DNA of 64,000 nucleotides, taken from positions 48,559-112,558 of the forward strand of contig JASGHF010000002.1 of NCBI GenBank assembly GCA_047602465.1. Reading direction: 5' to 3'. A program made the position numbers and the translations under genes. Below, one piece after another: positions 45-46,226 of this stretch (its first letter is position 1; each line of letters begins with the position of its first letter). The stretch comes from Micropepsaceae bacterium. GTDB lineage: Bacteria > Pseudomonadota > Alphaproteobacteria > Micropepsales > Micropepsaceae. The notes beneath the pieces were generated by a model. That model saw only the letters and a program-made list of their open reading frames with translations. It did no database searches and was not told the origin of the DNA.

Positions 45-92
45 CCTCCCCCGTCATTCACGGGGGAGGTGTCGCGCAGCGACGGAGGGGGC
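45..92. repeat. Palindromic REP-like element (CCTCCCCCG...CGGGGGAGG...GGAGGGGGC family), intergenic copy
   Basis: cctcccccgtcattcacgggggaggtgtcgcgcagcgacggagggggc forms two hairpins; a close second copy lies at 4092-4138 inside ygfZ. Confidence 0.8.
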
Positions 93-185: not shown

Positions 186-190
186 TACCT

Positions 191-207
191 GTCATCCTCG
201 GGGCCGC
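191..207. repeat. Truncated CGTC-type REP fragment
   Basis: gtcatcctcggggccgc is identical to the sequence at 5693-5709 in the repeat left of the GIY-YIG gene. Confidence 0.6.
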
Positions 208-315
208 GCAGCTGAACATCGCAAGACCGGGAAGGAGCCAACCAAGCCGAAAATCCTGCCTTGGCAGCACTGGTGAAATCTGGTTCTTTAAATGTTCTTG
301 TTGGAGATTCTGCTT

Positions 316-4700: not shown

Positions 4701-5084
4701 ATGGGCTCGGTTCTGCATCACGTTTCGCTCGGCTCGAACGACATGACGAAGGCGCTCGCCTTCTATGACGCCACCATGGCGACGCTCGGCCTCAAGCGCG
4801 TTCTGGAGTTTCTCCCTCACGCCGTCGCCTATGGTGACGACCACCCGGTCTTCTGGATTCAGACGCCGCACGATGCGGGCAAGGCCAGCACCGGCAACGG
4901 CATGCATATCGGCTTCGCCGCAACCTCGAAGGATCAGGTCGAGGCGTTCCACGCTGCCGCCATCGCCCATGGCGGCCGCGACGACGGCGCCCCCGGCCCC
5001 CGGCCCGATTACGGCCATTCCTATTACGGCGCCTTCGTGCGAGACCCCGACGGCAACAAGATCGAGGCCTGCCTTCACGCATGA
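4701..5084 (+). CDS. VOC/glyoxalase family protein
   Basis: HHVSLG, MHIGFAA, YYGAFVRDPDGNKIEA. Confidence 0.88.
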   Translation: MGSVLHHVSLGSNDMTKALAFYDATMATLGLKRVLEFLPHAVAYGDDHPVFWIQTPHDAGKASTGNGMHIGFAATSKDQVEAFHAAAIAHGGRDDGAPGPRPDYGHSYYGAFVRDPDGNKIEACLHA

Positions 5085-5677
5085 CGAAAAAGCTTGAGCG
5101 CGGCGGCTGCGTCTGGCCCGGCTCCGACGCGCTCTATCTCGATTATCACGACACCGAATGGGGCGTGCCGGAGCGTGACGGCCGCGCCCTCTGGGAAAAG
5201 CTGATCCTCGACGGCTTTCAGGCCGGCCTCTCCTGGATCACCATCCTCAGGAAGCGCGAAAATTTCCGCCGCGCCTTCAAGGGCTTCGACCCTGAGAAGG
5301 TCGCCCGCATGACGGACAAGGATGTCGAACGCCTCCTGAAGGACGAAGGCATCATCCGCCATCGCGGCAAGATCGAAGGCGCCATCAAGAACGCCAAAGC
5401 GTATCTGGAGATCGAGAAGACCCATCCGGGCGGCTTCACCGCCTATTGCTGGGCGTTCGTCGACGGCAAGCCGCAGGTCAACGGCTTCACCACCATGAAG
5501 CAGGTGCCCGCCGCCACCGATCTCTCCACCGCCTTCTCCAGGGATCTCAAGAAGCGCGGCTTCACCTTCTGCGGCCCCACCATCGTCTATGCCTGGATGC
5601 AGGCCTGCGGCCTCGTCAACGATCACATGACCGATTGCTTCCGCCACAAACAGGTCGCCAAGGCCAAGAGGCCATGA
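5081..5677 (+). CDS. tag: DNA-3-methyladenine glycosylase I
   Basis: YHDTEWG, GFQAGLSWITIL, IIRHRGKI, CGPTIVYAWMQACG..NDH; ATGA overlap with the VOC gene. Confidence 0.95.
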   Translation: MTKKLERGGCVWPGSDALYLDYHDTEWGVPERDGRALWEKLILDGFQAGLSWITILRKRENFRRAFKGFDPEKVARMTDKDVERLLKDEGIIRHRGKIEGAIKNAKAYLEIEKTHPGGFTAYCWAFVDGKPQVNGFTTMKQVPAATDLSTAFSRDLKKRGFTFCGPTIVYAWMQACGLVNDHMTDCFRHKQVAKAKRP

Positions 5678-5691
5678 GGCCTACCCCCAAC

Positions 5692-5742
5692 CGTCATCCT
5701 CGGGGCCGCCGCCGAAGGCGTCGGAACCCGAGGACCCATAGC
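5692..5742. repeat. CGTC-type REP, left copy flanking the GIY-YIG gene
   Basis: cgtcatcctcggggc...gaacccgaggacccatagc hairpin. Confidence 0.85.
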
Positions 5743-5757
5743 TCGCCGTAAACGCAG

Positions 5758-6072
5758 ATGCGGCGGCACAAACAATTCGCCTTCTACATTCTCGCCAGCC
5801 GCAAGCGCGGCACGCTCTATATCGGCGTCACCAGCGATCTGGCGGATCGCATCGCGCAACATCGCGCCCACGCACTTCCAGGTTTCACCGCGACCTACCA
5901 CGTCACGCGGCTGGTCCACTACGAATGGCTCGACAGCGCGGAAAGCGCGATCAAACGCGAGAAGCAGCTGAAACACTGGTTACGCAGCTGGAAGATCGAT
6001 CTCGTTGAACAGGCTAACCCGGCGTGGCGCGATCTTTGGCCTGCCCTGATCGGCGAACGCGAAATTGCGTAG
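5758..6072 (+). CDS. Small GIY-YIG nuclease family protein
   Basis: FYILAS..GTLYIGVTSDL..RI.QH and AIKREKQLKHW.R.WK..LVE..NP.WRDL. Confidence 0.92.
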   Translation: MRRHKQFAFYILASRKRGTLYIGVTSDLADRIAQHRAHALPGFTATYHVTRLVHYEWLDSAESAIKREKQLKHWLRSWKIDLVEQANPAWRDLWPALIGEREIA

Positions 6073-6077
6073 ATCGC

Positions 6078-6124
6078 GCTATGGCTCCTCGGGTTCGATG
6101 CTGCGCATCGCCCCGAGGATGACG
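6078..6124. repeat. CGTC-type REP, right copy in inverted orientation
   Basis: Reverse complement cgtcatcctcggggc...gaacccgaggagccatagc matches the left copy. Confidence 0.85.
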
Positions 6125-6148
6125 AATGGCAGGTGCGGCGCTTACGCC

Positions 6149-6508
6149 TCACGCATACGAGACCACCTCGAACTCGATCCCGTCGCTATCGAGGAAATAG
6201 AACCGCCTGCCGGGTTCGTAGCTGCCGTGATTGAACGCCGTCAGCCCCGCCGCCGTCACGCGCCGTTCGGCCTCATCCAGATCGTCCACCACGATCCCGA
6301 CATGGTTCAACCGCCCCTGCGGCGGCGCCCCGCCATTGGAATAGACCGCGAGATAATTGTCGTCCGCGCCCACATGCACCGTGTGCCCGCCGTTTTTCGC
6401 CGGCCCCTCCCAGCGGATTTTCCAGTCGAACAGCTTCACCAGCATCGCCGCGGTTTTCGCCGGCTCGCTGACCGTGATGTTCACATGCTCCAGCATCGCT
6501 TTTGTCAT
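6149..6508 (-). CDS. VOC family protein, probable SoxR target
   Basis: LEHVNITV, LNHVGIVV, RRFYFLDSDGIEFEV; ATG6508 preceded by AAGGAGG. Confidence 0.85.
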   Translation of the reverse strand: MTKAMLEHVNITVSEPAKTAAMLVKLFDWKIRWEGPAKNGGHTVHVGADDNYLAVYSNGGAPPQGRLNHVGIVVDDLDEAERRVTAAGLTAFNHGSYEPGRRFYFLDSDGIEFEVVSYA

Positions 6509-6562
6509 CGCCGCCTCCTTGCGCGCCCGGTGCGCGTCCTGCGTCGATTGCGATTTCTGCAA

Positions 6563-6580
6563 CCTCAACCTAACTTCAGG
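6563..6580. promoter_or_regulatory. SoxR operator (soxbox)
   Basis: CCTCAACCTAACTTCAGG resembles CCTCAAGTTAACTTGAGG; lies between divergent soxR and VOC genes, next to TTGACC on the minus strand. Confidence 0.8.
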
Positions 6581-26836: not shown

Positions 26837-26864
26837 GATGGCCGGCACAAGCCGGCCATCGACG
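26837..26864. repeat. REP half-element / bidirectional terminator hairpin
   Basis: gatggccggc-acaa-gccggccatc(gacg) between the convergent PAS and ilvC genes; resembles CGTC-type REP hairpins. Confidence 0.6.
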
Positions 26865-46127: not shown

Positions 46128-46139
46128 TTTATCCAAGGC

Positions 46140-46226
46140 TGTCATGGTCGGCGAAGGCCGACCATCCACGGCTTTGACATCGACCGCCGGAAAGGCGTGG
46201 ATGGTCCGCCTGCGCGGACCATGACA
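46140..46226. repeat. CGTC-type REP doublet (two inverted hairpins)
   Basis: tgtcatggtcggcgaaggccgaccatccacg ... cgtggatggtccgcctgcgcggaccatgaca. Confidence 0.82.

Follow-up and report, generated by a model that had tools for sequence, protein, structure and literature searches.

A small gene for a GIY-YIG protein, enclosed by two inverted hairpins with CGTC tags, lies between tag and a convergent glyoxalase-family gene in the 64,000-nucleotide stretch of Micropepsaceae DNA analysed here (the window). The question raised by this locus is whether the gene and its hairpins belong together and, if so, whether the nuclease spreads the repeats or only reads them. CGTC/TGTC-tagged palindromes were described by Di Nocera, De Gregorio & Rocco 2013 (BMC Genomics 14:522, PMC3733652) as predominant in Alphaproteobacteria; no enzyme associated with the CGTC-REPs was found, and these repeats 'apparently lack a dedicated transposase'. 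The sequence-only reading of the window, which held that CGTC-type REPs have no dedicated transposase assigned, reflects that state of knowledge and has been overtaken by Chenal et al. 2025 (Nat Commun 16:2388, PMC11893778), where such a link was published. Ssn proteins are described there as small GIY-YIG ssDNA nucleases whose genes are flanked by cognate hairpins, termed NTS or SRM. Mobility of such units was raised by those authors as a hypothesis.

The host genome comprises 3.46 Mb in two contigs (66% GC), and the locus is arranged as follows, in window coordinates.

190-216, plus strand: solo hairpin of the type that flanks the gene, truncated, TGTCATCCTCGGGGCCGCGCAGCTGAAC; the congener G007 bears an ssn unit at the corresponding locus
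5081-5677: tag, 3-methyladenine glycosylase gene (PF03352), upstream neighbour, with its 3' end facing the unit
5678-5691, no strand assigned: left junction, 14 nt from the tag stop codon to the left hairpin; predicted position of the top-strand cut if the nuclease is SsnA-like
5692-5742, plus strand: left SRM-type hairpin, 51 nt, with CGTCA tag, 8-bp outer stem, inner stem-loop and CCATAGC tail
5758-6072, plus strand: ssn-type gene, a single-domain GIY-YIG nuclease predicted from PF01541, alignment and homology
6078-6124, minus strand: right SRM-type hairpin, 47 nt, inverted copy of the left one, with a different inner stem and pairing kept
6125-6148, no strand assigned: right junction, 24 nt from the right hairpin to the stop codon of the glyoxalase-family gene, compared by eye with the congener G004
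6149-6568, minus strand: glyoxalase-family gene, convergent, downstream neighbour

The 315-bp ORF encodes a 104-aa protein in which GIY-YIG (Pfam PF01541) is the sole domain (residues 8-80, E=3.8e-14). The sequence-only reading had this gene bracketed by inverted hairpins, and the bracketing was borne out: the left element, CGTCATCCTCGGGGC CGCCGCCGAAGGCGTCG GAACCCGAGGA C CCATAGC, ends 15 nt before the ATG, and the right element, which reads CGTCATCCTCGGGGC GATGCGCAGCATC GAACCCGAGGA G CCATAGC on the minus strand, begins 5 nt past the stop codon. Common to both are the CGTCA(T) tag, the 8-bp outer stem (TCCTCGGG/CCCGAGGA) and the (C/G)CCATAGC tail, and both CGTCA tags face away from the gene, so that they form the ends of the unit. 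The inner stems are unlike in sequence, with pairing retained in both. Folded as ssDNA, the left hairpin reached -16.2 kcal/mol (z=-2.5) and the right hairpin -17.0 kcal/mol (z=-3.4). Across the 3.46-Mb genome only two copies of the 15-mer CGTCATCCTCGGGGC exist, both of them flanking this gene, which rules out a chance arrangement. No promoter-like site was found upstream of the ssn-type gene in a promoter/terminator scan of the unit, and an Rfam scan of the unit returned nothing relevant. Other repeats had also been linked to this pair. The fragment reported at 191-207 was recovered as the truncated copy at 190-216, and the hairpin near 26837 is indeed CGTC-tagged, on the minus strand, and is degenerate. 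Near 46140 hairpins are likewise present, as a pair, but they belong to a different type, TGTCATGGTCSGCG...CCATCCACG.

The hairpins recall those of the Ssn family. In Neisseria the NTS, CGTCATTCCCGCGMAVGCGGGAATCYRG, derives from dRS3 and is bound by SsnA, a 94-aa single-domain GIY-YIG protein (CDD cd10448) (PMC11893778). The dRS3 element was classed as CGTC-1 (PMC3733652), and the NTS/SRM hairpins correspond to CGTC-type REPs. SsnA cuts a few nucleotides 5' of the NTS, in ssDNA only and in one orientation only; cleavage requires Y6, Y17 and E64, and the three nucleotides 5' of the stem, together with the C immediately 3' of it, are critical (PMC11893778). Thousands of SsnA homologs are flanked by such hairpins, at least one SRM hairpin lies near 71% of ssn homolog genes with hairpins on both sides in 42%, and the Ssn homologs of other species cleave their own SRM variants (PMC11893778). 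Chenal et al. assign a protein to Ssn if its top CDD match is cd10448, or if it matches Nm SsnA CAX49033.1 in blastp with E<1e-10 and at least 75% coverage.

At 104 aa and with PF01541 only, the window protein lies below the 150-aa limit for a single-domain Ssn, and inverted SRM hairpins, oriented by the 5' tag, stand on both sides of its gene within the 500-bp limit. Alignment of the protein with its paralogs and homologs showed that Y10, Y21, R31, H35 and E68 are invariant, and the 11- and 47-residue spacings of Y10/Y21/E68 are those reported for Y6/Y17/E64 of SsnA. Among the matches listed in a scan for the exact NTS is a gammaproteobacterial MAG contig (L091) that encodes a protein 58% identical to the 104-aa protein (E=4e-39); the gene of this homolog has an exact Neisseria NTS on one flank and an NTS with 2 mismatches on the opposite flank. 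On the strength of the residue spacing, the fit of the hairpins to the published SRM pattern once its loop bound is relaxed, and the NTS-bracketed homolog, the gene is filed as an Ssn-type member with high but incomplete confidence. The locus very probably has the 'NTS-ssnA-NTS' architecture described by Chenal et al., in which an Ssn-type nuclease gene is accompanied by the hairpins cognate to it. Since the nuclease-hairpin partnership was published in 2025, the locus adds an example and not a concept.

The published SRM search pattern, HGTCWYN(0-2)YYVSBRHN(0-5)WNVSBRGN(0-2)RNCYNB, which is a search heuristic and not a definition, matched neither flanking hairpin as written. When the loop bound alone was raised from 5 to 25, both hairpins matched at every fixed position. 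The pattern misses them because loop and inner stem together span 15-19 nt against a bound of 5; with the loop bound as its cause, the miss says little against membership. The locus further shows that the published pattern under-detects long-stem variants. No NCBIfam family was matched by the 104-aa protein, and a PDB sequence search gave a weak UPF0213 match only, so that no Ssn structure was found by sequence. The N. lactamica NS19 and N. mucosa genomes contain no homolog of the 104-aa protein, and the only small GIY-YIG gene in these genomes is UPF0213-like and without NTS flanks.

Compared with Ssn/NTS, the window unit is alike in its single GIY-YIG domain of about 100 aa, its Tyr/Tyr/Glu spacing, its inverted hairpins, which are tagged YGTCAT at the 5' end and rich in C in the 3' tail, and in that each homolog has its own hairpin variant. 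It differs in its longer hairpin (8-bp outer stem, AA bulge and inner stem, 47-51 nt), which the published pattern misses, in the rarity of that hairpin type in its own genome, in the presence of seven paralogs in one genome, and in a nuclease activity that is predicted. The repeats belong to the same class as the CGTC REPs of Di Nocera et al., but theirs are mostly head-to-head dimers (PMC3733652), whereas the tags of the window unit point outward.

Homologs were present in 44 of the 61 genomes of the same bacterial family, usually several in each. For every gene, the upstream 220 nt were aligned to the reverse complement of the downstream 220 nt, and 300 random genome positions gave the background for this flank score (median 20, 99th percentile 30, maximum 38). 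The score exceeded the random maximum at 20 of about 29 evaluable loci, and nearly all such flanking repeats start with YGTCAT and finish with CCA. When only perfect stems were accepted by a stricter detector, 20 of 46 genes had hairpins to either side and 13 more had them to one side only, consistent with the published 42% and 71%. Flanking repeats are present at most homologs, the reverse of the outcome (most homologs lacking REPs) that the sequence-only reading had named as fatal to its own proposal.

Co-variation of REP sequence with the nuclease phylogeny, which had also been proposed as a test, was observed. Mapped on a maximum-likelihood tree, the 8-mer type of the hairpin underwent 22 changes; the mean after shuffling was 25.7, and so low a value was reached in 3 of 500 shuffles. 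The type is uniform within every well-supported small clade. The 104-aa protein groups with three congeneric proteins (SH-aLRT 94; 57-64% identity), all flanked by YGTCATCCTC(G/C)GG hairpins. These results indicated that hairpin type tracks protein clade. The GIY-YIG nuclease proposed as a specific partner of CGTC-tagged repeats stands; the autonomous mobiliser that the same proposal made of it is a hypothesis, here as in Chenal et al.

Besides UvrC, the genome encodes seven small GIY-YIG proteins. Inverted hairpin repeats stand on both sides of six of these genes, and the types differ between paralogs, with T5 present at two of them. Counts for each type are exact copies of its core genome-wide, and the reversed-sequence control was 0 for every type.

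T1 (the window unit): core CGTCATCCTCGGGG, 5 exact copies
T2: core TGTCATGGTCSGCG, 32 exact copies
T3: core TGTCATCCCGGSC, 20 exact copies
T4: core CCTCATGGCCGGGC, 21 exact copies
T5 (at two paralogs): core CCTCATCCTGAGGAG, 25 exact copies
T6 (no flanked paralog seen): core GTCATGCCCGCG, 14 exact copies

With 5 exact core copies against 14-32 for the others, T1 is therefore among the rarest types in its own genome, and the abundant hairpins there belong to other types. T1 is represented by 3 full copies, and its 13-mer with at most 1 mismatch gave 18 matches, compared to 2 in the reversed-sequence control. Seven paralogs, six of them with flanking repeats, in a 3.5-Mb genome bear on the proposed Ssn toolbox of ssDNA cutters. 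At the seventh small GIY-YIG gene (C2:341520-341726, locus L007; Pfam E=2.7e-13) no flanking hairpins or inverted repeats were detectable, the score of 18 being at background level.

Two of the paralogs are UPF0213/YhbQ-like (C1:2655597-2655833 and C1:2632146-2632376; loci L001/L005 and L222/L237; PDB 1ZG2, E=1.6e-11). Each lies between inverted copies of a repeat of ~48 nt, CCTCATCCTGAGGAG...GTCTCGAAGGACGC, which are separated by 369-370 bp and have their tags outward. Of 14 homologs in the bacterial family, 10 are enclosed by inverted repeats that score above the random maximum. Because these paralogs and homologs are flanked too, the nuclease-repeat partnership may extend beyond the cd10448-type clade, or the UPF0213-like clade may already be counted within it. 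The window protein itself was not assigned to UPF0213/YhbQ: its match to BH0048 is weak (E=0.004), against 1.6e-11 for the genome's UPF0213-like paralog, and although both are small stand-alone GIY-YIG proteins (PDB 1ZG2 BH0048, 1YWL EF2693), the Tyr-Tyr spacing differs. Assignment as a GIY-YIG homing endonuclease was also rejected. I-TevI-type homing and Penelope-like endonucleases share with the window unit a GIY-YIG domain and a potentially mobile gene, but they carry extra DNA-binding or reverse-transcriptase domains and have dsDNA targets, whereas the window protein is a bare domain of 104 aa encoded in a chromosomal context, between tag and the glyoxalase-family gene. In I-TevI-like enzymes the GIY-YIG domain is fused to a distinct DNA-binding domain, and their genes reside in introns or stand free in phages.

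The T2 hairpins show an arrangement of their own. At the T2-type ssn gene (C2:440998-441608, locus L004), four tandem hairpins in the same orientation, spaced 77-78 bp apart, lie on one side and a single inverted copy lies opposite. Gene-less tags-out T2 pairs with a spacer of ~20 nt are located at window 46139-46225 (C2:94699-94783), C2:135180-135258 and C2:536087-536166. Each T2 pair consistently combines two sub-variants, one reading GGTCGGCG...CCGACC and the second, in the opposite strand, GGTCCGCG...CGGACC. In appearance the pairs are miniatures, without the gene, of the hairpin-ssn-hairpin unit at C2:441230-441608.

By homology, the 104-aa protein would act as a stand-alone GIY-YIG endonuclease. 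It is predicted to recognise its own hairpin motif only in ssDNA, as might be encountered at replication forks or during transformation, conjugation or repair, and recognition would be sensitive to sequence as well as to orientation, through the 5' YGTCAT tag, the stem and a C immediately 3' of it. Cleavage is expected a few nucleotides 5' of the hairpin motif. Given the inverted arrangement and outward tags of the two hairpins, cleavage is predicted just outside the unit, in the top strand on its left side and in the bottom strand on its right. Both of these cut sites, and the specificity for single strands, are assigned here by analogy. In this organism the protein might restrict or modulate ssDNA that enters the cell or recombines, or it might serve selfish spread.

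Three further explanations of the unit were weighed. The likeliest of these is that the nuclease is a domesticated, host-serving factor for which the hairpins are genomic address labels, while the unit moves passively by horizontal transfer and inter-hairpin recombination, perhaps with the help of Ssn nicks in a homing-like gene conversion; we regard this as a serious candidate that falls a little short of being probable. It has a precedent in Neisseria, where SsnA restricts NTS-containing transforming ssDNA and the N. meningitidis Ssn system reduces the integration of NTS-bearing transforming DNA (PMC11893778). The patchy distribution of the gene (44 of 61 genomes) also fits a host-serving factor, but seven paralogs of separate specificity in a 3.5-Mb genome are hard to fit to one housekeeping role.

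The distribution of the hairpins across the genus bears on the same point. Pattern searches for the window hairpin type, for which reversed-pattern controls were all 0, gave 3 matches in the window's genome, 3 in G007, 9 in G006, 20 in G009 (representing 18 loci) and 0 in the other five congeners. The copies in the complete G009 genome (e.g. C1:2445671-2445712 and C1:3134473-3134510) are orphans; they include exact copies of both window flanking hairpins as solo elements, and several form head-to-head pairs with an AT-rich spacer of ~15 nt. The outer stem is shared among the G009 copies and the inner stems are many and varied with pairing kept, which indicates that the hairpin structure is conserved. 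No nuclease of the window clade was found in the complete G009 genome, despite its having the most copies of the hairpin type, and its three small GIY-YIG genes are each flanked by another hairpin type. Well-conserved hairpins persist in G009, then, without the cognate gene, and exact hairpins of 42-49 nt are common to G009 and the window's species though their genes differ by ~15-20%. Both observations favour a host-serving nuclease, and the abundance of the hairpin in a genome that lacks the clade (about 18 loci, the most of any congener) argues against a mobile element.

The second explanation is that the hairpin-ssn-hairpin unit is an autonomous mobile element, in which both the unit and its solo hairpins would be cut out or copied by a GIY-YIG single-strand nickase, as an analogue of REPtron/RAYT. 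This we consider unlikely, although several observations among the congeners speak for it. Empty sites downstream of tag, which the sequence-only reading had suggested looking for, were found: the unit is missing there in 8 of 8 congeners, tag and the convergent glyoxalase gene are separated by 15 nt in G004 compared to 471 nt in the window, and in five congeners tag is followed directly by the next conserved gene. Given these sites, parsimony favours insertion of the unit in the window's lineage. Together, the left and right junctions measure 38 nt, whereas the spacer in G004 measures 15 nt, and the inserted DNA thus probably extends ~10 nt past each hairpin. That overhang coincides with the expected SsnA-like cut position, a match that at ~20% divergence is only suggestive. 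Part of the right junction aligns, by eye, at 11 of 14 positions with the whole G004 intergenic spacer; because G004 is the only clean empty site and is ~20% diverged, the junction is placed only to within about 10 nt. A search for contigs encoding the exact Tag and Ssn proteins, aimed at strains of the same species in which the site is empty, yielded no entry.

The protein clade is located at four different loci in the four congeners that bear it. At the position of the G007 ssn locus, the window's genome has only the truncated hairpin (190-216), followed by 2.2 kb of other DNA, and at that of the G006 ssn locus it has a 140-bp hairpin-free spacer, compared to a 1.9-kb hairpin cluster containing ssn in G006. 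Solo hairpins in G009 are absent from the window's genome at four or five collinear intergenic sites. The polymorphism of the unit and of the solo hairpins among congeners is compatible with mobility of both. Tags-out hairpin pairs of 66-96 bp, found for three types in the window's genome, have the geometry of the 370-430-bp gene-containing units and resemble miniature derivatives of them. The insertion sequence-like architecture was also remarked upon by Chenal et al., who noted that NTS-ssnA-NTS resembles an insertion sequence and REP-RAYT, with domestication or mobility as hypothesis only (PMC11893778).

The likeness to REPtron/RAYT systems is one of layout. Both consist of one gene flanked by inverted copies of a dispersed genomic hairpin, with several gene-repeat pairs of separate specificity per genome, and recognition of an ssDNA hairpin is common to both (predicted for the window protein). 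REPtrons (IS200/IS605-like, with GTAG REPs) encode an HUH Y1 enzyme whose tyrosine forms a covalent intermediate, whereas the window unit, for all its flanking inverted copies of a dispersed REP, has GIY-YIG as its sole domain and no HUH Y1 transposase; the two enzymes are related neither in fold nor in chemistry. GIY-YIG nucleases act by hydrolysis and form no covalent intermediate, and no strand-joining or strand-transfer activity is known for them, which weighs against a transposing unit. A further difference from IS200/IS605 counts against it: the two motifs competent for cutting are on opposite strands. The clade proteins are 57-64% identical (68-71% at the DNA level), whereas the neighbouring tag is 79-87% identical in DNA; the clade is far more diverged than tag, which argues against recent intragenomic hops. 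Finally, the limiting of transformation is the sole function demonstrated for SsnA (PMC11893778). That the locus is a hitherto undemonstrated kind of active element, which nicks outside its outward hairpins so that the unit and the gene-less pairs are copied or moved into new intergenic sites, is doubtful. If true, CGTC-type REPs would gain their long-missing mobiliser.

The third explanation, that ordinary intergenic REPs or terminators stand beside an unrelated gene by coincidence, gains something from the position of the unit between convergent genes, where REPs and terminators accumulate, and is nonetheless rejected as extremely improbable, given a 15-mer confined to these two places in the genome, the recurrence of the layout with type-specific hairpins at six paralogs and most homologs, and stems that are followed by no T-run in the sequence or the terminator scan.

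Read as an Ssn-type gene with its cognate hairpins, the locus belongs to a genus that offers a filled and an empty site, one protein clade at four loci and a genome of orphan hairpins, and the question of whether the nuclease spreads or reads its repeats is thereby testable in a few related genomes.

Two further repeats were observed. A second, unrelated dispersed repeat, TTTCCTCCCCCGTCATTCACGGGGGAGGTG...GGAGGGGG, is located at window 45-92 and at many other sites in the genome (e.g. C1:1003886 and C1:612601). It often adjoins SRM-type hairpins, and at some sites it stands where a congener has an SRM (C1:999087-999325 in the window's genome, G000, compared to G009). The exact 28-nt Neisseria NTS consensus also occurs in distant phyla, including Chloroflexota/Dehalococcoidia, Planctomycetota, Nitrospirota, Desulfobacterota, Gemmatimonadota and others, at 120 loci or more (at least L009-L128).
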